Assembly (NCBI GenBank): GCA_937958645.1
Contig: CALGNI010000038.1
Location: 3,647 to 67,646 of the forward strand
Reading direction: 5' to 3'
Length of the DNA stretch: 64,000 nt
Source of the DNA: Candidatus Absconditabacterales bacterium
Lineage (GTDB): Bacteria > Patescibacteriota > Gracilibacteria > Absconditabacterales > Absconditicoccaceae
Numbering within the stretch: the first letter of the stretch is position 1; every line of letters begins with the position of its first letter. Below are positions 1 to 64,000 of this stretch, in pieces. The position numbers were made by a program, and so were the translations under genes. Below the pieces are notes generated by a model. The model made no database searches. It was given only the letters and a program-made list of their open reading frames with translations, and was not told the origin of the DNA.

Positions 1-101
1 CTTGAGACTCACTAACAGATACATCCCTTGAGGACTGAGAATCTCCTCTTGAATAGACATAGCGAGATGAATGTTATTTTTGCACTTAATTCAATATCTT
101 C

Positions 102-3100
102 ATGTCCAGAAACACAAGACCTCGCAAAAGATCAAAAGATCCTTTGAAGGTGAGAATAAATGACCAGAATCAGAATCTTGCACAAGAAGCAAAGGAAGCT
201 TTCTCTAGTAATAAAAATATAGTGAAGAAAAACGCTGAACTCACTATAGATCTCATGAACATGGAAAATGATAGAGAACCAGCAATCATTAATCTAGATA
301 AATATACAAATCAACAAAAAGCATATCGACATCAATATATAAACTTAACGTATCTAGAAGAGCTTTCTGATAATGCACTCCCTATCGATCTGTCAGGAGT
401 AGTTGTCACCCCAAATAACTTACTAAAGACTGAATTTAGCGCTCAAGAATGGCTTTCCATCATGGAATTTCAGTCAACAGTACAAAAACCTTATGAGCGT
501 GAGGTATATGCAGCTTTCTTACAATCAATAGACCTCTTTGATCGATTGCCTGTGAAGTTGTGGAGTGTGATGAAGGCAATGCAGTGATCTGAGAATCTAG
601 ATGAGTCATGGAAAGAGTTTCTTCAAAACAGGAGTACAGATTTATCTAGTGAATATTTTTTCAAGTTGAGAGCTCAACCCTTAGAAAAAGAACAAGAGAA
701 GATTTTTCAACAATTTCTTGATCAAGGAGGTACTGAAAACGGATTTCATACACTGCGAAATCAATATATGAAGAAGCAATGGAATGTGTTGGATGAGAAA
801 GATGCGAATGAAGAGCAGTTATATAAACGCTGGAGACTTAGGGCTATCATGAGGGTGCTCCCTCGAACTGATGATCAGTTGATGCAGCTAGACATCTTGG
901 AGAAACAAACTTCCGATCCTTTGTGGATGTCGCAGGTGCAAAAGACCCTAGCGCATGCTTTTCATAACAACGAAGACCGAAAAAATAACTCACTACTCCA
1001 GTTTGATGTTCAATCTAAGCTGCTTTTTATCCTATGAAACTTTTTTGATGAAGAATCTGAAGTTATGATTAAGGAGAGAGCGTTAATTAGGCAGGAGGTG
1101 ACTTCTCTTTTTCAATGATTCTCTGGCTCTAAAGAGCAAAGCTGATTATCCTCGCTATTCCAAAATCCATCTTCCCCTGAAGAAATATTTACCAAAAAAA
1201 AACTCAAGACTCTTTTCGATCAGCTATTAGAAAATAGAAGCTATAAGACGTGGGGATTACCGTCTCATATGGAGTTTTATGAGAATATTGAGGCTATGGC
1301 TGATGAGTTGAATAAAGGAGCATGATTTAGATCAGAACTTACTGGTCTTTTTATAGATGAGGATGCATCAGAAGAAAAACAAAATTCAGACCTACTTATC
1401 TTATTTTTCAATACTCTTTCTAGAGAACTCTGAAAGGGGAAAGACCTGGATATTGCAATTATGAAAGCTATCTATGCAATTAATCATACATATTTGAATA
1501 GAGTTCCAACTATTAGAGTGAAGAGTCAGGACTGAACGTCATCTTCTAGAGAAGGATTGTATGTTACAAATATTAAAAAGTTACTTTCTTGGTTATACGA
1601 ACAAAAAAACACAAAAGAAGAGCAGTTGCTTCAGTGAATCGAATATTCCGAAATCAAGCAGTGAAGCATTGCATCTCTTGACCTTGATCCTCAGGTATTT
1701 TCATCAGTAGATACATATATAAACAGAATTATGGAATTGATTCCATTCTTCAGAATAGAAACAGGGATTGGAAATGATGAATTTCAGGCAGTGATTAAGC
1801 ATCTGTATAACGAGCTAGAAATCTACATCCAAACGCTTTCTGATCAAGAAATTCAAGCATATCTTGATCAAACATCTTCAATATGATCTAGTTGAAAGAC
1901 GATTGCTACACAAAAACCTCAAGAAGAATATTGAGATAACAAAGAGTATTTTATGGCTTTGATCAAGGAATACATCAAGGCAGAGTTGTTGTTGCAAAGC
2001 CCTGATGGTCTTTTGTTTTGAGAAGGAATATGGCCTTTGGGTGATGAGGATTCAATCTTATTTCTGAAAAATAATGATGATAAAAAACCTCTGGAGTATT
2101 CATATTTCGATTTTGCTTTTTTATTGAATAATTACGATTTGGTTAGATCTTTAGTTAATAAGATCGATCGATCAAAAACTATGCATTGGATGGAGAGAGA
2201 TTTTTCTGAACCGAAATTAGCGGTGATTACTTCAGATTTTTTTCTTAAATATGCTATGAAGCTCTGAGAGAGTACTTGGTTATTACTTAACAATTCTGCC
2301 AAGAACATTAGCCATAGACTTAATCCCCCTATGCCTATTAACCTAGGTGGGTGAAATAGTGCTGAAAGAAAAATAGAGGTAGAGAAAATATTAGAGTCTC
2401 ATGTTAGATTGTCAGGGGTTTCACATATCGATTTGCATAACATCAACTGAAAATCAATTCTTTCGCATATCCTAAACCAACAGTGACTTTCTGATGATCT
2501 GTTGAAAAAGCGACTTGATGAGTTTGGTGAGATTGATGAGAATGCGTATCATGATGTGTCTTGAGCTGAAGATTTTAAATCAAAAGGTGTACTTCAAACA
2601 ACAGCGATACATGATGCTGTTATAGCTGGAAATGTTAAGGGTTTTGAGTTGCTGTTGAAAAAATGAATAGCGAAAAGTATATATATAAATTTGTATACAC
2701 GCAATCAAATTGATAAACATAGGTACTCCCAAGAAAAGTCAGTAATTGATTTGATAGCTGAACATAATAATCAAGAAACAGCAAGAAAAATGATATGGAT
2801 CTTGTTTTCAATATTACCTGAAAAAACTCATATTGATTACTTTACCGGTGAAATTGATTTGAGGCTAAAAGACCCAAAAGATTTGTTTTCCGTCAGAAAT
2901 CCACCTACTTGACTCACCTGACTCCAAACCCTGGCAGCATATGGACATCTAGATCTTGTGGAGGAGTTGATGGAGCAGTATTCATTAGATATTCGATGAG
3001 ATCTAAATAAAAAGGAAATGATGCTGAAGATTGCATGATCACCTCACGCTAGTGTGCAGGTGCTTGAGTGGTTTGAGAAGAAGTTTTTGGAGGAGGAGTA

Positions 3101-3836
3101 TTTTGGTTCACCGGGTAAGACTACTTCTATTATGTCTTGGGGAGAAGACTGATCAGTAAATAATTTTAGACCTTGAGAACCTTTTCTTGTTGCGACTTGA
3201 TGAGATGGTTATGATGAGAATAATTCACACTTTTTATATGTGTATTGATTAGATTCGAAGAATACTCGAAAACAAGAAGAAAAGTGACGAAAGAAGTATG
3301 ATTTTCCCCTCTTGCCAAGTAAAGATTTTGTAGAGTTCATAAAAGAAAACAATAACTTCTGGAAAGCTAAAAATACGATGTTAGAAACAGAGGGGTATTA
3401 CCAGCGTATGAAGGCTGATTTTCTTAATACGCCTTGATATAGATATAGTATTAAACTATTCGAAAATTACGAATATGTTAATGCAATTATCAGTTCTGGA
3501 GATCCTGAGAAAGTAAAGTATCTATTACGCAAATGAGGATATAGTCACTGAAGACTAGAAAATCAGAGTGATGAACCTACAAGTTTAGAAAAAGTACTCA
3601 ATGAGCTAAAAAGTCCTGATAATATTGGTATTGGAATGCAGGCTGTAATCATAAATATAAGAATGATAGAAAATGATGGGGTTGATTTTTTTGCAACAAA
3701 AATGGGATTGAGAATCAATAACTTATTCAAGATAGTGAGATTGCTTCGAGATGATGATCAGCAGCATAAGAAATTGTATGAAAAGAATCTGAGTAAAGAG
3801 GTGCTACAGAAGGTGAGAGAGATTGTTGGAAAGTAA
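102..3836 (+). CDS. giant hypothetical protein (1244 aa) with ankyrin-like repeat segments
   Basis: ORF-track pieces 102-587, 666-1037, 2037-2267, 2691-2912 and 3636-3836 share one frame. My read-through found only TGA between them, no TAA/TAG, and a TAA end. An in-frame TAG lies upstream at 54-62. ANK-like strings include 'TAIHDAVIAGNVKGFELLLKKG' and 'LAAYGHLDLVEELMEQY'. Confidence 0.65.
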
Positions 3837-3903
3837 AGCACTTTAGTTCAGCAAAAAGAACGAATGTTCTTGATTTCTCCTCACTTAATTTTATACTAAA
3901 TAC

Positions 3904-4714: not shown

Positions 4715-6211
4715 ATGCCCAAAAAATTTGACCCCATAGCCACACAAGCCTTAGATCTTATGGAAAACTCCACGAAGTCACTTTTTTTGACGGGGAAAGC
4801 GGGGACGGGGAAGTCGACCTTGATCAATCACTTTATCGACACGACGAAGAAAAATATCTTGGTGTTAGCGCCGACTTGAGTGGCTGCCGTGAATATCGGT
4901 GGTACGACCATTCATTCCTTTTTTGGTCTTCATCCTGGGATAACTATAGATGAGGTGAAGGACGGTGAGTATGGGATGAATTCTTTGAAATGGAAGATTC
5001 TTGAAAAGTTAGATGCTATCGTGATCGATGAGATCTCGATGGTGAGAGCTGATATGATGCATATGATTCATCTGATCTTACAGGATGTATATGGTGATGA
5101 GGAGGCCTTTGGAGGGAAGCAGATGATCTTCGTGGGAGATCTGTATCAACTTCCGCCGATCGTGCGCGATGAAGAGAAGAAGTTTTTTCGCGAAGTATAT
5201 GGAAATCAGTATTTTTTCGCTCCCGAGTGCTATGACGCCCTAGGAACAACTACGATCGAATTACAGCATATGTATCGTCAAGAAGATGCGGGTTTCAAGA
5301 GGGTTTTGAATAAGATACGTTTAGGTTTACAGTCTCAAGCAGACCTTGATGTACTGAATGAGAAGGTCGCAAGTGCAGATGATCTTCAGTGAGTCATTCA
5401 CTTGATGACTACCAATGCTGATGCTGCGATGATCAACAAGCAAAAATTGATGCAGCTCAAGACCGATGAATACCGTGCTTTTTCAACTATTGATGGCGAA
5501 GTGCCTCCTTCGATGTTTATGAATGAAAATACTCTGGTGTTTAAGCCTGGTGCGCAGGTGATGATGCTGGTGAATGGGCAGAAGTGGAGTAATGGATCGA
5601 TTGGTACTTTGCTCTCTCGAGATGAAGATGATGAGATTGCTACTATCGAGGTAGATGGTGAGGAAGTACAGATAGAGCCACATACCCGAAATATTCGTAA
5701 ACCAAGTTATGATGAAAAAGAAAAGAAGATAAAAAATGATGTCGTGGGCTCATTTACCCAACTCCCGTTCAAGCTCGCTCGAGCGATCACGATCCACAAA
5801 TCCCAGTGATTAACCTTTGATCGTCTGGTGATTGATTTTGGTGCTCGTGTATTTGCAACGGGTCAATCATATGTAGCTTTGAGTAGAGTGACGAGTCTGG
5901 ATTGACTGACCCTTACCAGACCGCTTCGTATGTCGGATATAAAATGTGAACCGATCGTCCGTGAGTACATGATGGAAGAACTCGCAGATCAACGCGAACA
6001 GATGATAGAAGATGCTATCTCGGAAAAAAGAACGCTGAGTTGTATTTATATGAACTATAGAAACCAGGTTGAGGAGGTAACATTTACCCCGAGTTCATTG
6101 GAAGATGTGAGAAAGCAAGGTATCGAATTTCCGGGAGTGAAGCTTGAGGATAAGAAGGGAGAAGAGAGGTTGTTGAATGCTCAGAGGATGTTTGAGCTTG
6201 TGCGCACGTAG
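4715..6211 (+). CDS. PIF1/RecD-family ATP-dependent DNA helicase
   Basis: Walker A 'GKAGTGKST', 'LAPTGVAAVNIGGTTIHS' (the G is TGA 4877-4879), 'VIDEISMV', 'ITIHKSQGLTFD', 'YVALSRV'. It joins track ORFs 4880-5392, 5402-5809 and 5930-6211 in one frame. Confidence 0.85.
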
Positions 6212-6337: not shown

Positions 6338-6772
6338 TTAATCCGCGGTAAATGGTAAAAAATAGGGACAATAATGTCCAAGCTGTTTGCCATCGATTTC
6401 TTGAGGTAAATAGTCATTTTTTTTGAATCCAAATATTTCTTTTGGATGTTTTTTAGAGATAATTTGACAATCTTTTGTGGGATTAGGATGACCGTCTCTA
6501 TAGAAACACAAGGAACATTTTCTTTGCCATTCTTCTCCATGAGCAAGATCCTCGGGATCATCATAGGTTTGAATAGCTTTTCCTTCTCCTGATAGTAGCT
6601 GTGCCACTCGTAATGATTCTCGGGGATTGACTTGTCCATTTAGGCAAACACTTGGATGTTTTTTTCCACGTTTTTGTCTCCAAGCCCAATGAGCAATAAC
6701 ATATTCGATTGTTCCAATTGGTATTCCCGTAAATAATTTTTCTGTTTTCATTTTTTTATTTTTTATTTTCAA
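6338..6772 (-). CDS. hypothetical protein
   Basis: Intact 144-aa ORF in the track with a TAA stop and no TGA. A terminator lies downstream. No family recognised. Confidence 0.45.
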   Translation of the reverse strand: MKIKNKKMKTEKLFTGIPIGTIEYVIAHWAWRQKRGKKHPSVCLNGQVNPRESLRVAQLLSGEGKAIQTYDDPEDLAHGEEWQRKCSLCFYRDGHPNPTKDCQIISKKHPKEIFGFKKNDYLPQEIDGKQLGHYCPYFLPFTAD

Positions 6773-9951: not shown

Positions 9952-11781
9952 ATGATCAAAAAACTCCCCCAACACCTCATCAACAAACTCAAAGCTGGAG
10001 AAATCGTCGAGCGTCCTGTTTCTATCGTGAAGGAACTCGTGGAAAACTCGCTTGATGCCTGAGCTACGCAGATCAGCATGGAGATTTCTGCTTGAGGAAA
10101 AAAGTTGATTAAGATTCAAGATAATGGAACGGGGATGACCAAAGAAGACCTTCAGATGAGTGTGGAACGTTATGCAACATCCAAACTAGACGAGACAAGC
10201 GATATTGAGATGATCGAAAGTTATGGATTTAGGGGTGAGGCCTTAGCGAGTGTGAGTGAGGTGAGTATCTTTCGTATTCAGACTCGTCAAGCAGCAGAAA
10301 CTGAATCAGGGGTCTGATATGAGCTGTATCGCGCTGAAGGAAGATATGATATCAAGCAAATTCCGTTTGCTCGTGAGCATGGAACGACCGTCTTCGTAGA
10401 AGATGTGTTTCATCATATCCCAGCTCGTGAAAAATTCCTCAAATCTGATTCGACCGAACGAAATTATATCAAGAAAATGTTCTTACAATACGCCCTGGTG
10501 CATCGAGATAAAAAACGAGAGCTCCTCAAGGATGGAAAATCGATGTATAGCTTTCTCCCTGCCGATAGTCTCATGGAAAGAGTGCTTTCACTCACCAAGA
10601 AAGATCGAGAAAAAAATCTAAAAACCCTTGCCTATCAAGATAAGCAATTAGAAATATTTGGTGTAGCTGGAGACGCGAGTTTGCATTTTGCGACTGGCCA
10701 ATATTTTTGGTTGTTTGTGAATGGACGTCCTGTGCAAGATAGAGTCTTAAAGTCTGCTGTGATGGAGGCCTATAGAAGGCAGATCGTGCCAGGTAGTCAT
10801 CCTTTCGTGTGTCTTTTCCTGGAGATAGACCCGAGACAAGTAGATGTGAATGTTCATCCAAGAAAACTCGAAGTAAAATTCCTCGACCCATGAAGCGTGC
10901 ATACCCGCGTCAAAGAAACGATCCGTGAAGCAATAGGAAGTCAAAAAGTGAACTATGCTGCCTTCAATCAAGAAGCAGTGAGGAGTAGCTCTCATCCCAG
11001 CTCAGGTTCAGGGAAAAGATTCAATGCTGAGCAATATCGTCAACATCAGTCTGGATTAACAGAATCTCAAATTCAATGATTGAAGCAGGTATGATCGATG
11101 AAAAACTGAGCTGAAGCAATGATGTTTGGTGCCGCAGATATGGATAAGGTTCATCTGGGGCAAAGTCAGTTGTGAACTGAGCTTATGGTCGTGGGTGAGC
11201 AAGAATCATATACCCTGATTGGCCAACTCCGACAGAGTTATATCCTTCTCCAAGCACCCGATGCATTGGTCTATATTGACCAACATGCTTTAGCAGAAAG
11301 AATCGCTTTTGAACAAATGAAGAAAAAAATAACCGCTGATGGCTTTAGTTCTGAAGTGCTTCTTCAGCCCCTAAGTCTCGAGATCCCCAAAGACATAGAT
11401 ATTGATGAGAAGATTGAACTCTTATGAACGATAGGGTTTGATGCTTCGGTATTGAGTGAGCGGAAGCTTGTCATCTATTCAATTCCTCGTGTGTTTCATG
11501 AGTGGAAGGTGGATATAGAATTGATCATCAATCGAGTCTGGTGAGCCAAGCACAACGCCCAAGGTCCAGAACTTTTTGGTCTGATGGTGGATGAAATGGT
11601 AGGGATGAAAGCCTGCAAAGCCTCAATCAAAGCAGGTCAAAAGCTCAGTCCCCAAGAAATGAAACAGCTCGTCCAAGATGGATTTACCTATATCCCAGGA
11701 ATGTTCGTCTGTCAGCACGGAAGACCAAGCGCAGTAAGGATTGAGAAGGGGAATGTGGATGGGTTGTTTGAAAGGCATTAG
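9952..11781 (+). CDS. mutL: DNA mismatch repair protein MutL
   Basis: '[24 protein letters not shown]', 'IQDNGTGM', '[10 protein letters not shown]', '[12 protein letters not shown]', and C-terminal 'CQHGRPS'. Five track ORFs join in one frame through TGA. TAG stop. Confidence 0.95.
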
Positions 11782-12740: not shown

Positions 12741-13790
12741 ATGAGAAGTTCATTAATAGTAATAATTATTACTGCAGTATTTTTATGCACCTTGAGTTGT
12801 AATACTACGTGGTATGATGAGGGAGAATTTGAAGAGTTTCCTGAATTATCAATTTCTGGAGATCGCCGAACTCAAGCGATTTGTGATTCTTATCTAGAGT
12901 CGTATGAGTACACGAATGATGTGAGTATTCAGGAGTTATTCTTGGAGTATCAAGTCTTCAAAGCTAATCTTGAAAAATTTTCTTTGTTTGCGATAAAGCA
13001 TAAACAATATCAAACCAAAGGTCTTGGGATCAATATCTTGCCTATGGATATTAAAATACAAGCTTTGTTTGATAGGCGACATATGAAAAGTAAACGAGGT
13101 CAGAATGGCTCGCCATGGTTAATTCTTCAGAACAACTACTATAGAATAGTTAAAAATAAAAGTTCTTCTGAATATCAAAAATACTATTTTGATGGATCTG
13201 AAATAAATAAGAGCGTTGAATTGAAAGACATCTCAAGTTTAACTCTTGGAATGAAAAATTTAGAAGATCTTACGGACTCTGATATTGATTTTAATAGAAA
13301 AAAAGAGTTATTTGATTTCTATAAAGACTTAGAAGATGGATTTACCTATAATCAAGAATGTACTAAGGAAATTTATACTACAGCATTTCTAGGGTGTCCC
13401 TTAGAAAAGCTAGAAAATCTACAAGAAACACCTACTGAGCTTAGAACTAGGACACTACATTCTGAAGAATTAAACTCTTTAGAGTTAGCAGCTCTTAGGC
13501 CTGAAGTATATCATATTTTGAAACAAGCTAATTTCTTTCTTGAGAATTTCACTAAAACTATTTCTAGAAATGATATTCCTTTTTATGATGAGAGTATTGC
13601 AATAGAAATATCTGAAAACTCAGAGAAAGAAATATTCATCGCAGACTGTGATTTTGAAGCAGGTATCGATCAAGACTCATTGAAACTTGGAGCCGAAATT
13701 ACTGTTGGGGGTGATAATCCAATATTAGGATTTGGTGGAGAGTGTAGAGTGAAGATTGAGTGGAAAGCTTTTAAGTCTAAAGCTGAGTAG
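12741..13790 (+). CDS. hypothetical lipoprotein
   Basis: Intact 349-aa ORF. Signal peptide with a lipobox-like 'FLCTLSC'. A terminator lies downstream. No TGA codons. Confidence 0.55.
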   Translation: MRSSLIVIIITAVFLCTLSCNTTWYDEGEFEEFPELSISGDRRTQAICDSYLESYEYTNDVSIQELFLEYQVFKANLEKFSLFAIKHKQYQTKGLGINILPMDIKIQALFDRRHMKSKRGQNGSPWLILQNNYYRIVKNKSSSEYQKYYFDGSEINKSVELKDISSLTLGMKNLEDLTDSDIDFNRKKELFDFYKDLEDGFTYNQECTKEIYTTAFLGCPLEKLENLQETPTELRTRTLHSEELNSLELAALRPEVYHILKQANFFLENFTKTISRNDIPFYDESIAIEISENSEKEIFIADCDFEAGIDQDSLKLGAEITVGGDNPILGFGGECRVKIEWKAFKSKAE

Positions 13791-14068: not shown

Positions 14069-15088
14069 CTATTTATCGTCTCCATCAACCATATCTTCAA
14101 CCATATCCTCAGCTTTATCAATCATATCTCCAGCTACTTCTTCTACTTTATCAATAATTCCGCTTGCTACTCATCCAGTAGCAGCATCTACGGTATCAGC
14201 TAGTTTTGTTACGACTCCTTTTGCCATATCACCAGCTCCGTCGATAGCTCCTCATGCTATACCTCCGAGTCATCCAGCGAGTCCTCACATAAGACCTCCA
14301 GCACCTTTTACAGCATCTCCAAGTCCTCATGCAGCTTTACCAGCAAGATCTCCGGCTCATTCAACTACAGATCCAGCAGCGTCTGCTACTCATCATGCAA
14401 CATTTCCAGCAGCATCAACAGCACCAGAAGCAACGCTTCCAGCAGCATCAACAGCACCACTAGCAACAGATCCAGCAGCGTCTACAGCTCCTTTAGCTGC
14501 GTCACCCACCATATTTCCTGCTCATTTTGCAACATCAACAGCACCAGAAGCAACGCTTCCAGCAGCATCAACAGCACCACTAGCAACAGATCCAGCAGCG
14601 TCTACAGCTCATTTTGCTGCGTCACCTACCATATTTCCAGCTCCTTTAGCCATGTCTCCCAGACCACCAGCTAATCAACCAGCCATTCCAGTTGCCTTAC
14701 CTAGAGTTCCTTTTAGGATACTATCAAGTGAGAAGTCTCAAGCTCCCATAAATACAGTAAGGAGTGAACCGATCAAGATGAAGAGTAGTTTAGGATCAAA
14801 TCATCCAACTGCATTCCATGCAACGATCATGATTATTGCACCAATAATACCAGCTAATCTCGTCTTGTATCCTAGAATCAAAGCAGCACCTGCTAAGATT
14901 TCTCATAAGGTTGCTAACCAAAACCAAACAGTGTTTGGAAGTATTTCCAAGAAAGGAATCAACTGTGATGCAGCTCCTCATACGAAATCAATATTTCCTG
15001 GCATACCACCAAATTTACCAAGTCCAGCTACCAATAATAAGATACCTACAGCAACGCGAATAATTCAAAGTACTTTTCACATAATCAT
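14069..15088 (-). CDS. DoxX-family membrane protein fused to a roughly 210-aa Gly/Ala-rich repeat tail
   Basis: Table-25 ORF of 1020 nt. N-terminus 'VLGIIRVAVGILLLVAGLGKFGG...' with 4 TM segments (DoxX-like). The tail is 'GDAAKGAVDAAGSVASGAVDAAGSVASGAVD...' with a near-identical internal DNA duplication (about 14400-14520 vs 14530-14640). Many Gly are TGA. TAG stop. Confidence 0.65.
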
Positions 15089-15197
15089 AAAAAAAGATAA
15101 AAAAAGATTAATCCCTTTCGATAAGTCTAATATTCGCTTCATTTGCAAGGAGTAGTTGGTTGATATGAGTGCTAAGTTCTTTACAAAAAAGAAAAAA

Positions 15198-15924: not shown

Positions 15925-17205
15925 ATGATTCATAGTACTGATCCAAAGATTGCTGCGCTAATCCAGGCAGAGCAAGAAAGACAAGCAACAGGAATGGAAT
16001 TTATTGCTAGTGAAAACTATCAGTCAAAAGCAGTGCTGGAAGCGCAATCTAGTGTGTTTGCGAATAAGTACAGTGAATGAACCCCTGGGAGAAGGTATTA
16101 TGGAGGTCAAGAAAACACCGATCTGATGGAACAGTTGGCGATCGATAGAGCGAAAGCATTGTTTGGTTCAGATCATGCGAATGTGCAAGCTTTGAGCTGA
16201 GCTGCAGCAAATGTGTGTATCTATGCAGGATTATTGCAGCCAGGAGATACGGTACTGGGTATGGATCTTACTCATTGAGGACATCTTACTCATGGTCATC
16301 CAGTGACCTTCATGGGAAAGATATTCAATTTTGTTCGCTATGGAATGAAGGACATCAGCACGGGTGAGATAGACTTTGAAGGTATTAGAGCTATGGCACA
16401 TGAACACAAACCTAAAATAATTCTTGCGGGATTTAGTGCATATCCCAGAGAGCTGGATTATGCTAAGTTCGCTGAGATTGCAAATGAGGTATGAGCAGTA
16501 GCGATGGCGGATATGTCTCATATTGGAGGATTGATTGCTGGGGGAGTATTGGCAAATCCTTTTGATGCAGGGTTTCAAGTAATGATGACCACGACGCACA
16601 AATCCCTGAGAGGGCCAAGAGGTTCTTTGATCTTGAGTAAAGGAACCGTAGGAAATCCATTGAAGAAGCCTGAAGATACGGTAGAAAATATTCCAACACG
16701 TATCGATAGAGCAGTATTCCCTGGTGTGCAATGAGGACCTCATATGAATACGATCGCTGGGATCGCAGTAGCATTGCATGAAGCAAATACAGAAAGCTTT
16801 AAAACCTATGCACAACAAACCATAGACAATGCAAAAGCAATGGCAGAAGAATTCCTTAGCAGAGGATACAAACTCGTGACTTGATGAACCGATAATCATA
16901 TGATCGTTTTAGATTTTTCATGAACTAATATTAACGGTTCTGTGGCAGAAAAATCCTTGGATGTGTTGGGAATTAGTACAAGTAAAAGCACGATTCCTGA
17001 TGATCCAAATCCTCCCTTCAGACCCTCAGGTCTCAGAATCTGAACTCCAGCGATGACCACCAGAGGTCTCAAGGAAGATGAGATCAAGACGATAGTGGGT
17101 TGGATGGATTCAGCATTCAAGCATCACGACAAAGAAGATATCCTTACGGGACTTCAGGCGGAGGTGGAGATTATGAGTAAGGCTTTTCCGAGTCCGAGTG
17201 TGTAG
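15925..17205 (+). CDS. glyA: serine hydroxymethyltransferase
   Basis: 'IASENY', '[13 protein letters not shown]', 'LTHGGHLTHG' (TGA 16276-16278 is Gly), '[12 protein letters not shown]', 'VFPGVQGGPH'. Track ORFs 16303-16494 and 16504-16734 are in frame with ATG 15925. Confidence 0.95.
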
Positions 17206-22182: not shown

Positions 22183-22863
22183 ATGGCTAAGAAAGGAAAG
22201 AAGTTTGTTGAAGCTAAAGCAAAGGTAGAAGTGGAAAAGAAATATCCACTTGCTGAAGCTGTAGCATTGGTAAAAGAAGTATCTACAAGTAAGTTCGTAG
22301 GAACACTAGAGCTTCATGTTTGTACTAATGCAAACCCAAAGTATAATGACCAAATCTTGAGAGGGACTGTAGTTCTTCCTCATGGAACAGGGAAAAAAGT
22401 AACAGTTGCTGCATTTGTTGGTGACGAAAACAGAGACGAAGCTACTAAGGCTGGAGCTGATATCGTAGGAAACAAGGAGTTGATCGCTGCTATTGATAAA
22501 GGAGATATCAACTTCGATATCTTGGTAACAACAGCTGATCAAATGAGAGATCTTGCTAAAGTTGCGAGACAGCTTGGACCAAAGGGTCTTATGCCTAGTC
22601 CAAAAGCTGGTACAGTAACAGCAAATCTTGCTAAGACGATTGATGAATTGAAAAAGGGGAGAGTAGAATACAAGCTAGATAAAACAGGAAATGCTCATCT
22701 TGCAGTGGGGAAACTCGACTTCGATGATGCTAAACTTATGGAAAATGTAAGATCAATTCTAGACTCTATGGAAGAAAATAAACCAGTAGGAGTAAAAGGA
22801 AATCTTATCAAAAAGATTGTCCTCGCACCTACTATGGGTCCTGGAGTACAAATTGAAGGATAA
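22183..22863 (+). CDS. rplA: 50S ribosomal protein L1
   Basis: Intact track ORF. 'LPHGTGK', '[15 protein letters not shown]'. No TGA codons. Confidence 0.95.
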
Positions 22864-27004: not shown

Positions 27005-28201
27005 CTAAACTCTACTTTCTATCACCCCACTCCCTACCAATTCATCACCATCGTACAAAACAACAATCTGTCCTGGTGAGATGGCGCGTTGGGGTGTGGT
27101 GAATGTTACGAGGTAGGATTGATTTGACTCATGCTGGGTTAATCCCTCTCAGTCCCCCTTTGAAAAGGGGTCTTTACGCTTGGGTTTGCCGTCGAACCCC
27201 TCTGTCTTTCACTGCGTTCAAGACATCTCCCCTAAGGGGAGACCATCAGATTGTTTTTCAATTTTTGTAATTTCACACTCTTGGTCTTCTTGTCTGTAAC
27301 GGATCTTGGCGTGGCCTTTCCGGGGAACTGAAGGAGTCTCTCATGAGGTCCACTGAATTTCTGATGCAATGAGTGAATCGTGCATAAGGTCTTTTTCTTG
27401 ATCTTTACTGACAGTGATCGTGTTTGAAGAGGTGTCTTTTGCAATTACATACCAAGGACCTCCACCGAGTCAGAGTCATGTTCTTTGACCAATAGTCACA
27501 AAGTGAGCTCATTCATGCTGTCAGAGGATTTTTCCTTCGGTATCAACTATGTTTCAGGGCTTTTTTGGCAAGGCTTCTTGAAGAAATTCTTTGATGGGCA
27601 CCTTTCCGATGAAACATAGTCATTGGCTGTCTTTGCGATCTGCATTGGGAAGTTTGATTTCTTGAGCGATCTTTCTTACTTCATCTTTGGTGAGTTCTCC
27701 CAGAGGAAATAAAGAGGATGCTAATTGCTCTTGGTTTAGTCCTGAGAGAAAATATGACTGATCTTTGTTGTGATCGATTCATTTTAAGAGTAATTTTTTT
27801 CAATCATGTTCTGAGATTCTTGCATAATGGCCTGTAGCGACGTAATCACAGTTGAGTTTTTTTGCTTCATCCAAAAAAAGTTTGAATTTAACTTCGCTGT
27901 TACATAAGACATCAGGATTTGGGGTAAGGCCTTTTTCATAGCCATCATAGATGTACTGGATGATGGTTTGATGGTATTGTTCACGAAAGTCAAAGATGAT
28001 AAATGTCTTGATTCATAGGTGTTTTGCAACTTTTAGTGCCATATCTCTATCTTGTCTGGTATGACAGTGGGGATTTTCTTCTTCAGCATAGTTTTTCATA
28101 AATCCCGCAATGACCTCATATCATTGGGTTTGCAAAAGATGTGCTGACACCGCAGAGTCAACTCATCAAGATAATCATAAGAGGACGCGTTTTTTTTTCA
28201 T
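27005..28201 (-). CDS. mnmA: tRNA-specific 2-thiouridylase MnmA, with an in-frame GC-rich insert
   Basis: PP-loop 'VLLGLSGGVDSAV' (both G of SGG are TGA, about 28161-28166), '[12 protein letters not shown]', 'ATGHYAR', 'KDQSYFL', 'DSQGLCFIG', 'PQRAISPGQ'. Length 1197 nt. TAG stop. Confidence 0.9.
27130..27250. repeat. GC-rich palindromic element embedded in frame in mnmA
   Basis: 'tccctctcagtccccctttgaaaaggggtc...acatctcccctaaggggagacc', with hairpins tctcccc/ggggaga and cccctttt/aaaagggg. Translated as about '[41 protein letters not shown]'. Confidence 0.7.
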
Positions 28202-30082: not shown

Positions 30083-31246
30083 ATGGTATCTATCATATTG
30101 TTAGTACTTAGTTTGATTATCTTGATTTGAATGGTAGCTTGGTCTCTGTTGAGAGGGTGGCGAATACTGTTTTTTGGTTGTTTGTTGTTATTATTTGGGA
30201 TAGGGGCGATGTTTAGTGTAAGTATTCATGAGTCTTTTGAATACACCCGTAAGTTTCTTGATGCCCCTTCAAATTACTTCTACTTCTTTGAACATATAGA
30301 AAAATTTATTTTGTGAGCGATCGTTTGTCTCATTGCGTATGTTACCCCCTGGGCTTGGGTCAAGAAGAGTAGTTTCTTGCTGTTTGCGGGGAGTTTGATT
30401 TTGATGCTGGCACTGTTTTTTATCTGAGATGATTTCAATAAAGGGGCCAACTTATGGATTAGGATTGCAGGGAATACCATCCAACCAGGGGAGTTCTTTA
30501 AGGTCTGAATGGTGTTCTTCTTAGTTTCACGGCTGTCTAGGAAAAAAAGAGTCTTCGATGAACTTCAATATTATCTTTGATTTGCTATGATTGCGTGACT
30601 TTGTGCATGAATCTACTTCTTCTTGCCTGATTATGGGTCATTACTGATTATCGGTCCCGTTGCTTTGATTCTGTTTCGATTTTATGGAGGTAAACGATAT
30701 TATATTCTCACGACGCTAGTGTTAGGATTTTTTGTGGTTGTATTAGCTTCTGCCAAAAGTACCTATGTAAATGAAAGAATTGGGTATTTCTTAGACCCCA
30801 GTAGTGACCCTAGTTCAAGAGGGATTGGATGGCAAACTACACAGTCATTGGTAGCAGTAGGATGATGATGAATTATTGGGAAAGGGTATGGAAAGGGATT
30901 ACAAAAGTTTTGATATATCCCGGAAGCTCAAAGTGACTTTATCTTTGCTGCGTTTTCGGAAGAAATAGGATTTTTGGGAAATAGTATCTTACTGACTCTG
31001 TACTTCTTGCTTGCCCGAAACGTCCTCAAATGACTCAAGTGACTTCGCGATCCTTTCGATAGAGGAATCGTAGTGTGACTTCTTTCGTTGATTATCATGC
31101 AGATGTTCGTAAATATCGGAGTAAATATCAAATTACTTCCTTTGACCTGAGTGACCTTGCCTTTCATTAGTCATGGATGATCCGCGTTGATGGTGAATAT
31201 GCTCGAGATCGTGTTGTTGCATAAGATTGTTAATAAGATACCGTAA
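30083..31246 (+). CDS. ftsW: FtsW/RodA/SpoVE family peptidoglycan glycosyltransferase
   Basis: 'IQPGEFFKV', 'PDYGS', 'GGGGIIGKGYGKG', 'IPEAQSDFIFAAFSEE', 'GVTLPFISHGGSA'. Track ORFs 30131-30316 and 30623-30865 are in frame. Confidence 0.9.
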
Positions 31247-33031: not shown

Positions 33032-33105
33032 AGGGGGGTGGTGTAATGGGAACACAGAGGTCTTCGGCACCTCGGTTATCAGTTCAAATCTGATCCTCTC
33101 TGCCA
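33032..33105 (+). tRNA. tRNA-Arg (anticodon UCG), CCA encoded
   Basis: Hand-folded cloverleaf: acceptor agggggg/cctctct (with G3.U70 and G5.U68), U8, D stem gtgt/acac with loop aatggga, anticodon stem gaggt/acctc with loop cTTCGgc, variable ggtt, T stem atcag/ctgat with loop ttcaaat, discriminator g, cca. Confidence 0.8.
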
Positions 33106-40762: not shown

Positions 40763-40939
40763 GACTAAAGTGATGGTAAATACTTCACTAAGTATACCTG
40801 TATCTAGAAAAAATAGCAAAAAAACCATGGCCTGTTGCTATTTCCTAACAACACATACCACACTCAGGCTATTGACAAATTGATTTAAATAATTATTATA
40901 TAAACACTTCTCGATGTTGAGAAGTGCTAAAACAAAAAT

Positions 40940-41712: not shown

Positions 41713-42774
41713 TTACAAATTCTCAAACTTTTCCCTCAACTCATCTTTTTGAAAAAAATCTAATTTAGAGATGAAGTGCAAGGCTGCATCGAGTCTTTTT
41801 CTGTTTTTTGCAAATTTGTTCTTATGTACTAGTACTTCGATATATCACCAAAGTTCTTCTTGTGATGAAATATGTTCCTTCACAAATTTTTGGAGTAAGA
41901 TAGCTTCTCTAGCACTAGATTTGTTATTTGCGCGCAGGTAGAGCGTCTGAAAAGTGAACTTTTTGAGAGAAGGAGAAAGTGTTAAGTTGTTTTTCTTGAA
42001 TCCTTCCAAGATAAAGGTAGTGATTTCTGTCATGGTGTTTTTTGGTTTCAATGAAGCTACTTTTTCTCAAAGCAAAAATCGTTTATACATATTCTGTGAT
42101 CATGATTCAATTTGCTGTGATATTCAACTAATATGATGGAAGTCTGGATTACCAGGGATCTCATCCTTTAGTTTCTTTTTGAAGTTTCTTATTTTTAGGT
42201 CTTTTGATCCTTTTATTGCTGCAAATGCCGTTTCTCTCTCTATTTTGGATTCACTTTGAATGTCCAAAGTACTGATGTCAGGTCATCAAATTGTTTCTTC
42301 GTAGCTATAATTATCTAGAGTAGCTGCTATCTCATGTTTGTGATGGGTAGAAATTTCGTCTGCTGGTGTTGTTTGCATAGAATCCGTTCATTGTTTGTTA
42401 GTACTGATCTGAGTCGGAGAATCATGGAAGACAGCAACGATGCTATCGATAGCGATGATATTATTAATCACTCTTTCTTTCTCATTGAGTTCCTTGATGA
42501 GTGAATCAATAATTGTGGCTTTTAGCGTAGGTTTATTGTGTAGAACAATTGCTTTATTTAGAGTTTGTATGATTTCTTTGAGCATCTGAGCACTTATATG
42601 TGATCAGTTCTGTTCAATCAAAGAAAGAACGTCATCACGAAAAAACATTTCAACAACGAAGTTGCTAGCGTCCTTCATTGTATCCACAAGAAAATTCACT
42701 TGTGATTGAAGTTCTTCTGAGATGTTTTTTCACTCTTGTGGAGTGTTTAGTGGTGTTGGGGTTAGATTTTTCAT
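41713..42774 (-). CDS. hypothetical protein
   Basis: 1062-nt table-25 ORF that joins track ORFs 41845-42051 and 42388-42585 in frame. No family recognised. Confidence 0.5.
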
Positions 42775-43011
42775 AGTAGTAATTTATTTATTCTACTGCT
42801 GTTGTCAATATTAATTCTGCTTTTATTTACTTATCCCTTTATTTGAGCTTCGAAATACACGCTAACTATTAGCCCTTGAAATCACCCCCATTATTCATTA
42901 TCAACAAGACATGAATATGCTGATCTGCAAAAAATCTGCAAAACCTTGTAAGCCACATTGTGGTAGGTTTTTGTAGGCAATAAAGAATACATCTTATTAG
43001 CTCTATCAAAT

Positions 43012-43042: not shown

Positions 43043-43060
43043 ATGTTTTGATTTTTTATT

Positions 43061-44332
43061 ATGACGACATTGAGAATAAGTAATGATGGTATTTCCCCTG
43101 AGTTGGATCCTAAGATCTTGGATGTGATTGCCCAGGTTGATCACACAGGTGCATATTACCTGTATGATGAGCAATATATCGTCGATCAAATAGCCGTGTT
43201 TAAGCAGCGAGAGATGGCTTGAGGATTTCAGTTGAGGTATGCGATGAAGGCAAATCCGATCAAAAGGATCTTGGAAACCATGAATAAGAATGATGTGCAT
43301 ATCGATGCGTGTAGTGAATATGAAGTCTGGAGGGCGATGGACGCAGGGTTCGAACCACATCAGATTCAACTCACCGGGCAGGTGTTACCTGAGAACTTAG
43401 GAAAATTGCTTGAGTTGTGAATATCGATTTGTGCATGTTCTTTGCATCAAATAGCTATGATCTGAAAGATTAAACCTGGAGCTACGATGTGAATAAGACT
43501 CAATCCCTGATCAGGATCAGGTCAATTTCCTGGAGTGAACGTATGAGGAGAGAATTCTTCATTTGGGATATGGTATGACAAAATTCCTGAGATTCTTGCT
43601 TTGGCTCAGGAGTATGATTTGCGTATCACGACCATGCATACGCATATCGGTTCAGGTACAAACCCTGATGTACGAGAAGATGTAGCATCTCATTCTCTAT
43701 GATTTTCTAAGCATTTCAAAGATCTTGAAACCATAAACTTATGATGATGATTTAAGATAGCCAGAACCCTTCATGAAAAGGCTGTTGATATCTCGGAAGT
43801 ATGAAAAAAACTCCAGGAAGCGCTTGCTCTCCATGAAAAAAACACCGGAATCAGTCTCAAGCTTGAAGTAGAGCCCGGAAGTAACCTTGTAGCAAATGCA
43901 GGCTATCTCGTAGCTCAAATCGATGATCTGGTAGATACTGGAGCATCATGAAATACCTTCGTGAAACTCAATATCGGGATGTCAGATATCATCCGTCCTA
44001 TCATGTACGGAGCTGAACATCCGATTCGATTTTTGACCACAGATCCAGATGATACCCAGCAAGAAGTCATCATCGTAGGACACAGTTGTGAAAGTTCAGA
44101 TATGCTGACGGTAGATAATATTTGAACCCCACGCAAACGTAAAGTTCCTAGCAACATCGATATCTGAGATCTAGTCATCATAGGTGGAGCGTGAGCATAC
44201 TGCAGCAGTATGAATACCAAAAATTACAACTCATTCCCTGAGATCCCAGAATATCTTCATACTACACACTGAATGATAGATCTTATCAAAGCAGGTCAGG
44301 AGGTTGAGGATATATGGGCTTTGGAGGTGTAG
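43061..44332 (+). CDS. fold-type III PLP-dependent decarboxylase (Orn/DAP/Arg decarboxylase family, LysA-like)
   Basis: 'LRYAMKANP' (PLP Lys), 'HTHIGSG', 'INLGGGF' (three consecutive TGA at 43742-43750), 'EVEPGSNLVANAG', 'GAGAYCSSM'. Confidence 0.8.
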
Positions 44333-44427: not shown

Positions 44428-45456
44428 ATGATAATAGATCTCCATCAAGATTGGTCAGATAATAGTCTTACTACGACTCATAAGGATTTCTTTTCTAAGG
44501 AAGAAAATCTTCATGGCTGGAATATGGAATGAATGGACGCAGTAAATCATGCTACATTTGAAAAATTAAGATCATCAGGCATTGTTGCTGTCATAGGAGC
44601 GCTATTTATCGACCCGATCACAATGGAAGCGAGTGATCATTCATTTTCTCAGTGAAGACAACCCATCGAAGCTGCTTTGTATGAGCTACATCGTCACAAT
44701 AAGTTTTATGACTACGTAGTTTGAGCATCAGATGGAGAACTTCGTTTGATAGTATCAGGAAATGATCTGGATGAATGTATTCAAGAGAAGAAAATGTGAC
44801 TTATTAAGCATATCGAATGATATTATGTGCAAGATCCGTCAGGAAATATGGATGTGTTAGACCGCCTGTATGATCAGTGAATTAGATCGGTATGAATGAC
44901 TCGAAATATCAATAACAATTTAGCTCAAGCATCGAATGATGGAGAGCATACTCATTGATTGACTGAGTTGTGAAGAATCTTTGTAGAAACACTAATAAAA
45001 AAATGAATGATTCTTGATCTTGCTCATCTTTCGAGAACGTCAGTTGATGATGTGCTAGATATTGTCTCTTCTCCGGTTATGGTTTCTCATACTGCATTGA
45101 CCTGAGATAACGATAATCATAGATTTATCACTCCTGATCAAGCAAAGAAAGTAGCGGACAAGTGATGAATTATTTGATTAGCTGCTATGAAAAACAAATC
45201 TGATGAGTTTCCTCTAATCACACTTGATCATTATGGCGATCAAATAAAAACATTAATTAATTTGCTTGGAGAGGATTATGTCTGAATTTGAACGGATTTT
45301 GATTGATTGCCAAGTGAGTATGTGGTTGAATGATTTGATGATACGAGTAAATATCATCTAGTGCAAGAGCAGTTGCTAAAGAAATGACTCAAGCAAGCTC
45401 AAATTGAGAAAGTGATGTGATGAAATGCAAAGAGATTTATCCAGGCAGTATTATAA
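44428..45456 (+). CDS. membrane dipeptidase (peptidase M19) family protein
   Basis: 'IIDLHQD', 'LIKHIEG', 'GIRSVGMTRN', 'ILDLAHLS', 'VMVSHT', 'GIGTDFDG', 'VMGGNAKRF'. Confidence 0.75.
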
Positions 45457-54980: not shown

Positions 54981-56291
54981 ATGGAATGAAATGACAAAAA
55001 TTTACCTAATGGTTATGAATCTACTCCTGACGATGAGAAAGTTACATTATGAAGTAAGAATTCTTTATTAGATTCATTACAATTGAATCGAGAGGAATAT
55101 TTGAACAATGCAATAGATACTGCAGAATCAGAGAAAAAAAAGGCATATTTTATGAGAATAAAAAAATTATTAGGATTGAAGGATTTATCTAAAGAACCAT
55201 GAAATCCTATCGCATTAATCATTGATAGTATAAAAAATGATGAATTTTATAGTTCTTTTGAAGATATTGAGGCTTCAGAAATTGCTTCAGAATGGGCGAC
55301 GTTTGATGTATTTAATTTTCCTGAGGACCATGTTGCTAGGAGAACATCAGATAGTTATTTCTTGTTAAAATCTAATAATGTTAGTGAAAGTATATTGCTT
55401 AGACCTCATACTTCGATCGTCCGATATGACTATTTAATGACGATGGATTGAAAGAAAAAACTAGAAGAAGAAGGGGAGATTAAGATATTATCATCTTGAA
55501 AAGTATATCGTGTTGATACTTTGGATCCAACTCATCATGAATGTTTTCATCAAATTGACTGATTGAGAATTGTTAAAAAGGACAAAGAAATTATTACACA
55601 AGAAACATTAAAAGATGTTTTAACAGTTACAATTAAGGCAGTTTTTGGTGACGATGTAGAGTTTAAATTTTATGAGGATAGCTTTCCATATACAGTTGAG
55701 TCATTAGAAGCATATGTTAAATTTGAGGATAAATGGATAGAAGTTTTAGGCGCATGAATAGTGCATCCTTCAGTTTTAGAGAAATTATGAATTAATTCTG
55801 ATGAATATAACTGACGGGCTTATTGATTTTGAATCGAGAGACTCGCTATGGCATTAAAGAAAGTGCCTGATATTAGAATTTTTTGGTCAGAAGATGAGAG
55901 AGTAACTAATCAGCGATGAAACTTTGAGCCGTATGAAGAAATCAGTAAATTCCCACCAGTTTACAAAGATATATCTTTAGTTGTTCCTAAAAATAAATTT
56001 GTTGAGGATACTTCTGAATGAGCTGATCCTTTTGATTTAAATGAAACAACAGAGTCAAATTTCTTTGAATTTTCAATTATTGCTAGAAATGTATGATGAG
56101 ATCTTATTGAAGCAGTAGAAATTACTGATATATTTAAGAATGATGCTAAATTTTGAGAGGAGTTGATGTCTATAACATTAAGAATTACGTTTAGATCATT
56201 AGAAAGAACTCTTACAAACGAAGAAATCAATAAAATGTACTTTGATATTAGACATGAAATTGAAAACTGATTAGGGTATGAATTAAGATAG
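54981..56291 (+). CDS. monomeric phenylalanyl-tRNA synthetase-like protein (PheS catalytic core fused to an FDX-ACB domain)
   Basis: 'FNFPEDHVARRTSDSYF', 'LLRPHTS', motif 2 'GKVYRVDTLDPTHHECFHQIDGL', motif 3 'AYGFGIERLAMAL' (TGA at 55824 and 55830), then 'FPPVYKDISLVVP...ITLRITFRS' (FDX-ACB). 436 aa. Confidence 0.8.
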
Positions 56292-61836: not shown

Positions 61837-62952
61837 ATGATTATAAAATCTTGTGAAATCAGAGTTATATCAGTACCAATGAAGCAATCACTTCTTGTAT
61901 CTTTTGGTGAACTTAAAGAGATTCAAACATTAATTATCGAATTAAAAGATGAGGATTGAAATATTTGATATGGAGAAAGTATTTTAGTGCCATTTCTATC
62001 TTCTTCATTTACGAGTTTTGATGTGTGAAGAATTGTTGCAAAAAAGTATTTAAAACCACTTGTGCAATGATATGAGATTGATGATTATGAAGACCGGAAA
62101 AAAACAATAAGTAAGTTTTCAAAGCACTTAGATCAGATATATTGATATGAAATGGTGAAAGCTTGATTTAATAATGCTTGTATTCATTTGTTGGCAAAAA
62201 GAAAATGACTGTCAGTTTTTCAACTATTCGATGTCAATAAGTCAGAATTTAATGCGCAAGAATCCATTTCAATATGAGATTTTGACTCTATTTCAGCTGA
62301 ATTAGATATATTGAAGAAAAAATGATACACCTTTGTTAAAATAAAAATATGAGATAATAGTGACCTAGATTTGCTATCGACTTTAATCAAATCAAATCCT
62401 TCACTTAAGATTTGAGTCGATGCGAATGCTTGATTCAATAGGTGAGATACTGATTCGCTGCTATTATTTGCGAAAAATAGTTGAGTAGCTTTTATTGAGC
62501 AGCCATTCTGAAAAGAAAGGCTTTTTGACCATGCTCAACTCCAACTATGATTGAAATGTTGAGTGAGCTTAGATGAATCAATAATAACAATTAACGATCT
62601 TAGTGATGCCATTAATTTAGTTTCTTGTAGAATGATAAATATAAAAATTTGAAGAGTCTGATGATTGATGCATTGAATTAAATTGTATGAGCTTGCAGAA
62701 CGTAACCATATTGATGTACGAGTTTGATGAATGTTAGAAACCTGAATTTGAAGAATATATAGTCTTTGCTTATGAGCGCTGATCCAGAATGAAGTTTGAC
62801 ATGATATTTCTGAAGTAAATACTCGATATGAACAAGATATTGTGAAAAAATCATACAAAATAGAAGAAGGAAAATTGAAAATACTGAATTTAACTAAAGA
62901 TATCGAAATTGATTTTGAGGTTTATGAAAAATATACTATTGAAATCTTTTAA
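61837..62952 (+). CDS. enolase-superfamily enzyme (OSBS / N-succinylamino-acid racemase / dipeptide epimerase subgroup)
   Basis: 'FVKIKIG', 'IGVDANAGF', 'FIEQPF', 'VSLDESI', 'INIKIGRVGG', 'GGMLETGIG'. Confidence 0.75.
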
Positions 62953-62971
62953 TCTTAACCTAATCTAAAAA

Positions 62972-63928
62972 ATGAATTCAATACTTACCTCTGTACACAA
63001 TGAAGTGCCTTGAGTACTGCATCTGGATTCTTGAACACAGTGACCTGTATTCTGAGTTAGCTCATGCGTTCATTGATGAGAAGTGACTTGAATAAGAATT
63101 ATTGAAGAATTTCTTAAGAGTAATAAAGAATGAAGAATAAAATTAATAAAATGATCGTTAATGTTAATTCTCGCAAATGTAGATGCGTATAAGTCATTTA
63201 TAGATGTTACTTCTTCGTTAGATAATACTATGACTAAGGAGAAATTAGAGGCAGTGAAAAAATATAGATATCTAGATGAAAATATGAATCGCTGTACAGC
63301 TGAAGATAACTTGAATGTATCCATATCAAGAGAAGTGAAAAGAGTGAATGAATTATCAAAAACATTAGAAAATATTGATATCTTGTTGGATATACATACC
63401 ACCAGTACACCTTCAGACTCAATTATGATTTATTCTTCTTGAATGGGTCGTGAAAAATATTCTGATATATGTAACACAAAAGAACATCTGATAGATATTA
63501 CTGATCATCTAGCTTGAAAACCATTTTTTGATATGGTAGAGCGTAGTGGAGGAGTATGACTAGCAATTGAGTCTTGATATGAACTAGATGATCAATGATA
63601 TAAAGTATGATTTGAAAATCTAATTAGATTGCTAGATGAGGAATGAATGATAGAAGTAGAATGATGAGTCGATCAATTTTACTCTCCTAGAAAAGAAAAT
63701 AGAAAAATACAGATCTATGATCATATTGTCTTCAGAAATAATGATTTCTCCTCAATTTATCTTAAAGATAAGCCATTGCATCATGGACAAATTCTTCCGG
63801 AAGGGACGTATATGTGATTTGATTGATTAGCTGATATATTCTTGAGTGAGGTGTCAATTATAATTATGCCGAATGTAGGAGTAAAATATATATGAGAAGA
63901 GTTTTGTTTTTTGTGAAGATTAGTCTAG
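62972..63928 (+). CDS. succinylglutamate desuccinylase/aspartoacylase (AstE/AspA) family deacylase 2
   Basis: 'GVSSCVHGGEVTG', 'LDENMNR', 'LLDIHTTS'. Track ORF 63161-63442 is in frame. Confidence 0.65.
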
Positions 63929-64000
63929 TAAAATAAACTAAAAAATGAGTTTGTAATGCATGTCAATATATATATAATATTTTTACTAAAAACATTGCTA

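Follow-up and report, generated by a model that had tools for sequence, protein, structure and literature searches.

Evidence for reassignment of UGA, CGA and, very probably, CGG in a 64-kb chromosomal stretch of an uncultured Absconditabacterales bacterium

Comparison with described genetic codes

That SR1/Absconditabacteria and Gracilibacteria read UGA as glycine was recognized in 2013, and this code is NCBI translation table 25 (Campbell et al. 2013; Rinke et al. 2013; both as cited in PMC8629427 and in the gTranslate preprint). According to the gTranslate preprint, the table-25 clade is the GTDB class JAEDAM01, with the orders Absconditabacterales and BD1-5, and its hallmarks are the loss of release factor 2 (RF2) and a tRNA-Gly(UCA). 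A further departure was predicted with Codetta, namely that CGA and CGG encode Trp in Absconditabacteria and that CGG does so in some Gracilibacteria (Shulgina & Eddy 2021, eLife, PMC8629427); in the literature we searched, a single further paper mentions it. Here we analyze these three codons in a stretch of 64,000 nucleotides, referred to as the window, from an assembly of Candidatus Absconditabacterales bacterium (GenBank GCA_937958645.1, contig CALGNI010000038.1, positions 3,647 to 67,646 of the forward strand). TGA sits at glycine positions and exchanges freely with GGN codons, and CGA sits at tryptophan or other aromatic positions and exchanges with TGG, not with Arg codons. We conclude with high confidence that the window is chromosomal DNA of an uncultured UGA-recoded member of the Patescibacteria (Absconditabacteria/SR1 and BD1-5 "Gracilibacteria", i.e. 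GTDB class JAEDAM01), in which UGA is predicted to encode Gly, CGA to encode Trp and CGG very probably to encode Trp as well, with UAA and UAG as stops.

This code matches the one predicted for Absconditabacteria by Shulgina & Eddy (2021, PMC8629427), and the phenomenon itself is not new: the same three codons take the same meanings, the tRNA(UCG) has G73 and lacks A20, and AGA is the main Arg codon. The two differ in the frequency of CGA, which amounts here to 53 per 10,000 codons of all called genes (UGG 68, CGG 8), compared with fewer than 37 per 10,000 in all species of that screen, where Pfam-aligned columns only were counted, so that the measures are not the same; provided they are comparable, the higher usage would indicate a later, "rebounded" stage. 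With table 25 the window shares UGA as Gly, UAA and UAG as the only stops, UGG kept as Trp, and a small low-GC genome of the candidate phyla radiation, but in table 25 CGA and CGG encode Arg, whereas here CGA, and probably CGG, would encode Trp and make up about half of the Trp codons. The original prediction, a note made from the sequence alone, had assigned the window to "genetic code 25"; its UGA-Gly assignment and its UAA/UAG-only stops stand, while the Arg meaning that table 25 retains does not fit CGA, which behaves as Trp, and probably not CGG. The label "code 25" understates the recoding, as judged from the sequence evidence below: relative to the standard code three codons would have new meanings, Gly for UGA and Trp for CGA and, very probably, for CGG. 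Table 4, used by Mycoplasmatales and some insect endosymbionts and often chosen by automated pipelines, has in common with the window a sense UGA and AT-rich DNA, but the UGA columns of the window are Gly, never Trp. In Anaerococcus and RFN20 Bacilli (PMC8629427) an Arg CGN codon has likewise been captured by Trp in a low-GC genome, but there only CGG is affected, via tRNA(CCG) and with no tRNA(UCG), whereas the window has a tRNA(UCG) and uses mainly CGA.

The value of these results lies mainly in annotation. With table 4 every glycine encoded by TGA turns into Trp, with table 25 about half of the tryptophans (about 100 positions in the window) turn into Arg, and errors of tables 11, 4 and 25 would pass into family models, structure predictions and metaproteomic search databases built on such translations. 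The window also offers independent codon-level support for the CGA/CGG to Trp change, which has so far rested on one computational screen; what is added here is the cognate tRNA gene and a close relative in which synonymous exchanges can be counted.

CGA, CGG and the tRNA(UCG)

Codon usage was counted in 51 confident open reading frames (ORFs) with 16,566 codons. CGA occurs 88 times and CGG 14 times, along with 112 TGG, 319 AGA, 90 CGT, 65 AGG and 33 CGC. If both CGA and CGG are Trp codons, they account for about 48% of all Trp codons (CGA alone for 41%). AGA is the main Arg codon, with 319 of the 609 codons in the six standard Arg codons (507 if CGA and CGG are excluded).

Two close relatives, ROTH18-1 scaffold_120 (L084, L087) and JGI 3300002055, have gene order in common with the window from 0.1 to 37.5 kb, at 62-96% protein identity, which allowed us to count codon pairs in alignments where TGA, CGA and CGG were masked. 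CGA is paired with CGA 25 times, with TGG 23 times, with CGG three times, and once each with CGT and AGA, and TGG is paired with TGG (34), CGA (23) and CGG (3). The codons CGT and AGA behave differently: the former is paired with CGT (26), CGC (19) and AGA (4), the latter with AGA, AGG, AAA and AAG, never with CGA. For CGG the partners are TGG (3), CGA (3) and others (8). TGG and CGA differ at two bases, and so many exchanges in proteins of this identity thus point to synonymous drift rather than to replacement of Trp by Arg. The counts bear directly on the alternative that plain table 25 applies, i.e. that only UGA is reassigned, that CGA and CGG remain Arg, and that the alternation of Trp and Arg reflects real substitution. 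This is the official code of the clade, yet under it CGA would have been exchanged 23 times with TGG, by two base changes each, and only twice with other Arg codons.

Comparison with solved standard-code proteins, read by eye from the printed best alignments like all PDB tallies given here, covers 16 CGA/CGG positions: Trp occurs at three of them, Phe at six, Tyr at one, Leu and Ile at two each, and Gln and Thr at one each. Aromatic residues thus occupy 10 of the 16 positions, and the complete lack of Arg or Lys is not what plain table 25 would lead one to expect. One of the three tryptophans corresponds to CGA 62719..62721 (+) of an NSAR/OSBS-type enolase-superfamily gene (61837-62952), where the motif "VWCGGMLE" ("VWCGGM" in 1wuf and 1wue) has its conserved Trp; the second to the CGA of residue 211 (43673..43675, +) of a diaminopimelate-decarboxylase-like gene (43043-44332, +), which is Trp in 7jpj; and the third to CGG 55815-55817 of the PheRS gene (54981..56291, +; tRNA-synt_2d and FDX-ACB domains), which is Trp in human mitochondrial PheRS. 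CGA codons of mutL (9952..11781, +; 10 TGA, 6 CGA, 1 CGG; CGA at 10459, 10504, 10516, 10606 and 11230) align with F, F, I and F in E. coli MutL, and those of ftsW (30083..31246, +; 16 TGA, 4 CGA, 1 CGG), where CGR codons (CGA or CGG) stand at 30530, 30677, 30695 and 31016, fall on Y, L, F and L of 8bh1.

Alignments of homologs from the clade give a similar picture. The PheRS columns 148, 279 and 312, which in the window carry CGA (55422-55424), the CGG mentioned above and CGA (55914-55916), respectively, contain W in 110-111 of 119 sequences, "R" in the remainder, and never G. In MutL, column 219 is divided into 61 W and 57 R and column 427 into 83 W and 35 R, and columns 170, 185 and 189 contain F, Y, W or "R", while columns of CGT, AGA and AGG are R/K in these alignments. 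Plain table 25 has to explain invariant Trp columns in PheRS and in the NSAR motif as sites of Arg. Pfam scores also favor Trp, with a net gain of 16.7 bits over CGR translated as Arg: FtsW gains 7.3 bits (258.9 versus 251.6; 213.7 if TGA is translated as Trp), the PheRS core 3.3, the enolase C-terminal domain 2.6 and the decarboxylase 2.3, and a single codon, CGA 44902..44904 (+) in the M19 dipeptidase gene (44428-45456), raises the Peptidase_M19 score by 6.4 (185.0 to 191.4) when its residue is changed from R to W. A misplaced Trp usually costs several Pfam bits per site.

The only tRNA gene of the window, which is also the only match of an Rfam scan, has the anticodon UCG (33032..33105, +). 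ARAGORN labels it Arg, as plain table 25 would have it. The predicted transcript folds into a cloverleaf with A1:U72, discriminator base G73 and the D-loop AAUGGGA (G20, no A20). ArgRS requires A20, and a tRNA(UCG) with G73 and without A20 conforms to the Trp identity rule, for which A/G1:U72 is a supporting feature (PMC8629427). By the rule of Shulgina & Eddy (2021, PMC8629427) the tRNA of the window is therefore a predicted Trp acceptor, contrary to plain table 25. All 74 of its nucleotides are identical at the syntenic site in two relatives, in which the flanking proteins differ by 5-25%. Two variants found on recoded metagenome contigs retain A1:U72 and G73 and show a compensatory change of G7:C66 to A7:U66. 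We also considered the D-arm as a specific marker of this tRNA and rejected it: in the metagenome scan the pattern was generic, being shared by tRNAs of unrelated organisms, among them those for Gln, Asp, Glu and Trp, and no more than two of the matches were to a tRNA(UCG) on recoded contigs. A tRNA-Trp(CCA) that shares this D-arm was found on contigs that are not clearly recoded and is uninformative as to the origin of the tRNA(UCG).

Several observations weigh against the Trp assignments. The MutL_C domain scores 4.4 bits lower with CGR as Trp, and some CGA codons fall on polar or other non-aromatic residues (Q, T, and D at PheRS position 37); both would suit plain table 25. CGG is represented by 14 codons, and clearly aromatic columns are found only at PheRS 279 (W in 111 of 119 clade homologs and in human mitochondrial PheRS) and FtsW 150 (aligned with Y/F), while the CGG codons at MnmA 294 and MutL 504 fall in variable columns. 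The lack of A20 is in itself a weak criterion, as the identical D-arm occurs in unrelated metagenome tRNAs, including an apparent GCG-anticodon tRNA. Neither tRNA-Gly(UCA) nor prfB, TrpRS or ArgRS was found within the 64-kb window, 39 of whose 59 ORFs were scanned against Pfam. CGA and CGG may also be read ambiguously, as Trp and Arg. On balance we consider it very likely, from the alignments, codon exchanges and tRNA features, that CGA encodes Trp, and probable that CGG does so too, with fewer codons to judge by but with the same tRNA expected to read both by wobble; plain table 25 is unlikely.

The clade literature suggests how such a code might operate and arise. UGA would be read by tRNA-Gly(UCA), RF2 would have been lost, and the tRNA(UCG) would be charged by TrpRS and would read CGA and, through wobble at U34, CGG. 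AT-biased mutation would drive GGN codons to TGA, and separately TGG would spread to CGG and CGA by synonymous change. The tRNA-Gly(UCA) that is a hallmark of the clade has G1:C72, C2:G71, G3:C70 and U73. We found no tRNA(UCA) in the window, in the loci of seven relatives (about 106 kb) or in the syntenic tRNA loci of the relatives, and no release-factor domain among the ORFs scanned against Pfam; the machinery that would decode UGA is thus inferred, not seen.

TGA in reading frames and at glycine positions

Under the standard code the genes of the window are cut into pieces by TGA, as the original prediction had pointed out. Across the six frames, the summed length of ORFs with 100 aa or more is 20.5 kb with table 11 but 103 kb when TAA and TAG are the sole stops, compared with only 47 kb or 33 kb if TAA or TAG is freed instead. 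When genes are called greedily and without overlap, they take up 22.8% of the window with table 11 (35 ORFs, median 106 aa), which amounts to the destruction of its annotation and bears out the warning that table 11 would mislead here, and 83.4% if TGA is translated (59 ORFs, with a median of 269 aa and a maximum of 1244); in the TAA-sense and TAG-sense controls the coverage is 36% and 28%. The 59 ORFs contain 625 in-frame TGA codons (3.6% of codons) and end with TAA (38) or TAG (21), and their lengths agree with those in a close relative (PIF1 498/498, SHMT 426/426, NusG 190/190 and L1 226/226), in line with the earlier claim that true gene ends are TAA or TAG only. The lack of in-frame TAA and TAG in these ORFs follows from their construction; since the three stop triplets are all abundant out of frame (1440, 1015 and 740 occurrences), TGA alone is exempt in frame.

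In order to identify the residue encoded by TGA, we masked this codon as X in alignments, so that no code was presupposed. The mnmA gene (27005..28201, -) has 17 TGA codons, among them both glycines of the PP-loop motif SGGVDS at 28163-28168. It was compared with 79 orthologs from standard-code bacteria, mostly Proteobacteria, obtained from a genome scan that was ranked by standard-code tblastn and contained one SR1 genome. All 14 alignable TGA columns have a Gly majority, with Gly in 1018 of the 1111 non-gap cells (92%) and Trp in none, so the TGA columns do match conserved Gly columns, a mismatch with which had been named beforehand as evidence that would count against UGA as Gly. In the same alignment GGN codons fall on Gly in 52-95% of cells and TGG on Trp in 97%, in agreement with the earlier statement that TGG remains Trp. 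The window MnmA also has an insertion of about 45 residues (residues ~310-355, ~27140-27280, -), rich in Gly, Lys and Glu, at which 73-77 of the 79 standard-code orthologs and most clade homologs show a gap.

The other motif positions cited in the original prediction also proved to be TGA codons in the motifs given, its "about 28161-28166" for MnmA being the only coordinate that shifts slightly. They include THGGH of glyA (SHMT; 15925..17205, +; 9 TGA) at 16276-16278, APTGVAA of PIF1 at 4877-4879, DIGCGTG of a methyltransferase at 33333-33335 and 33339-33341, YGFGIERL (motif 3) of PheRS at 55824-55826 and 55830-55832, the GGGG run of FtsW at 30863-30871, and NLGGGF of the decarboxylase-like gene, where GGG is encoded by three consecutive TGA codons (43742-43750) that align with GGG in 7jpj and 1knw. 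In alignments with PDB structures TGA falls on Gly at 8 of 9 positions in SHMT (5vmb and 1dfo, as well as E. coli GlyA), 12 of 16 in the decarboxylase-like protein, 8 of 11 in PheRS, 11 of 27 in the NSAR-like protein and 8 of 15 in FtsW (8bh1), i.e. at 47 of 78 in total, compared with one of 78 on Trp. Ten proteins were translated with TGA as Gly or as Trp and compared with Pfam; the tenth (FtsX-like) gave no comparable hit, and in the other nine all 15 domains scored worse with Trp, with a total loss of 322.8 bits (e.g. from 496.2 to 459.8 for SHMT and from 185.0 to 111.8 for M19). Finally, the partner of TGA in the close syntenic relative is TGA in 86 cases, a GGN codon in 122 and TGG in one. 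Judged from these sequence comparisons, UGA almost certainly encodes Gly and is neither a Trp codon nor a stop, as originally proposed.

The usage of TGA is not uniform along the window. Its share of Gly codons rises from 25% (1-27000) through 50% (27000-43000) to 76% (43000-64000), and that in individual genes, ranging from 0 to 0.95, correlates with position (Spearman 0.76) and with GC content (-0.62); the latter is 34.8% for the whole window and declines along it, with values of 0.38-0.40 at 4-12 kb and of 0.29-0.31 at 48-64 kb. This raises the possibility that two recoded organisms were joined in a chimeric assembly, in support of which one could cite the steepness of the gradient, the GC shift, the end of synteny with the relative near 37.5 kb, and the lack of a MutL entry in the public collection identical to that of the window, unlike for MnmA and PheRS. 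We consider a chimera very unlikely. MnmA (27-28 kb) and PheRS (55-56 kb) are both found on one public contig of 84,159 bp, the shift is gradual through 27-43 kb, CGA falls on Trp or aromatic columns in both halves, and TGA fractions recur gene by gene in the relative (window/relative: PIF1.12/.12, SHMT.21/.19, MnmA.42/.41, FtsW.38/.40), which means that the pattern belongs to the genes or the region and did not arise in assembly. As for MutL (9952-11781), the best public match is 84% identical; the missing identical copy may reflect a different gene call or a public contig that does not reach that far.

Five genes have no TGA at all, with 11-20 GGN codons each: 36887-37564 (-), 40940-41503 (+), 12741-13790 (+), 6338-6751 (-) and 22183-22863 (+). 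They comprise an NAGPA-like secreted protein (36887-37564; TGA 0/20 in the window and 0/20 in the relative), a 187-aa signal-peptide protein (0/14), two hypothetical proteins, and rplA (0/20, compared with 5/21 in the relative). The two secreted proteins, located inside TGA-rich DNA, may be recent acquisitions from standard-code bacteria. A broader reading, which we regard as doubtful, is that the lineage represents the most advanced known capture of CGA by Trp and that the share of new codons in each gene records the history of that gene. If true, the zero-TGA genes at 36887-37564, 40940-41503 and 12741-13790 would have crossed the supposed "genetic firewall" from donors that use the standard code, and the block at 43-64 kb, low in GC and rich in TGA, would have another origin or a longer residence time.

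Public records also bear on the possibility that translation table 4 applies, with UGA as Trp as in Mycoplasmatales. Public proteins identical to the window MnmA and PheRS (P0001 and P0124) are stored with Trp at all 17+17 TGA positions and with CGA/CGG as Arg, i.e. in code 4, and some relatives carry the name "uncultured bacterium (gcode 4)". Alignments of clade homologs, however, show mixtures of G and "W" exactly where the window has TGA or GGN, and no G in columns of true TGG; the same code-4 artefact is seen in many clade homologs, with a W content of 3-7%. When we looked for UGA aligned with conserved Trp, as table 4 would have it, we found none in the 1111 MnmA cells and the single PDB position mentioned above, and the Pfam losses and the codon pairs (122 with GGN, one with TGG) likewise speak for Gly. 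The composition of the encoded proteins argues in the same direction: TGA and GGN together account for a steady 6.8%, 7.1% and 7.5% of residues in the three zones, while GGN alone falls from 5.1% through 3.6% to 1.8%, and TGA and TGG together would climb from 2.4% to 6.2%, so that with UGA as Trp the last 21 kb would encode proteins with 6.2% Trp and 1.8% Gly. Table 4 is extremely improbable. The standard code, with TGA as real stops in pseudogenes, at sequencing errors or at selenocysteine or read-through sites, would account for the fragmented look of genes under table 11, but has practically no chance given the number of in-frame TGA codons in ORFs that cover 83% of the window, an exemption restricted to TGA, the conserved Gly positions that carry this codon, ORF lengths and order kept in a relative where some TGA codons are replaced by GGN, and a TGA density far in excess of any selenocysteine usage.

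Gene content and relatives

The names of the nearest matches, namely "candidate division SR1", "Candidatus Absconditabacteria", "Candidatus Vampirococcus lugosii", "Candidatus Gracilibacteria" and the "uncultured bacterium (gcode 4)" ACD bins, bear out the SR1/Gracilibacteria affiliation proposed initially. Pfam searches with TGA-sense translations of the ORFs identified ordinary cellular genes, and the window is a piece of cellular chromosome, not of a phage. The first 15 kb encode NYN, PIF1 helicase, Impact_N/UPF0029, PemK toxin, MutL, thymidine kinase and DoxX proteins; the region of 15-33 kb encodes SHMT, NusG, L11, L1, a SecE-like protein, an FtsX-like protein, MnmA and FtsW; and that of 33-43 kb a small methyltransferase, a DKNYY protein and NAGPA. 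The names of NusG, L1 and NAGPA were taken from Pfam-annotated orthologs in the relative, and those of L11 (~21.6-22.0 kb) and the SecE-like ORF just upstream of nusG from their own translations together with such orthologs. The DoxX-domain membrane protein (14069-15142, -) has a long Gly/Ala-rich repetitive tail with units like GAVDAAGSVAS and contains 20.7% Gly if its 17 TGA codons are counted. The 1.5-kb segment 8051-9558 has only short unconvincing ORFs (g07-g09) on either strand, the highest local GC content, and other small ORFs in the relative; the segment may hold a decayed gene or be non-coding.

Between the tRNA(UCG) and NAGPA (33162-36271) lie three genes that are absent from the relative (L087 4257-5364), encoding the small methyltransferase, the DKNYY protein and a 199-aa protein; beside its tRNA the relative has instead a gene for a 23S-rRNA-intervening-sequence protein. 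Beyond the region of synteny, the low-GC block 43043-63928 is rich in amino-acid-modifying enzymes. It encodes the diaminopimelate-decarboxylase-like protein, the M19 dipeptidase, an S-Me-THD-like protein, two AstE/AspA proteins, a pyridoxal phosphate (PLP) decarboxylase, a nucleotidyltransferase, a protein with the metallo-beta-lactamase (MBL) fold, a biopterin-type hydroxylase, a class I/II aminotransferase, a GCS2-like protein, the NSAR/OSBS-type racemase, PheRS, a Trp-repressor-like protein and TrmB-type regulators.

We considered PheRS as a part of the surrounding metabolic cluster and dropped this idea, as the neighborhood is not conserved in two other lineages. No pheT-like gene adjoins the PheRS gene here or in these two lineages. 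The protein is a single chain composed of a catalytic core followed by an FDX-ACB domain at the C-terminus, the human mitochondrial PheRS is its best relative among solved structures, and the two-domain architecture recurs in all 120 listed clade homologs, which suggests that the clade has a monomeric PheRS of the mitochondrial type.

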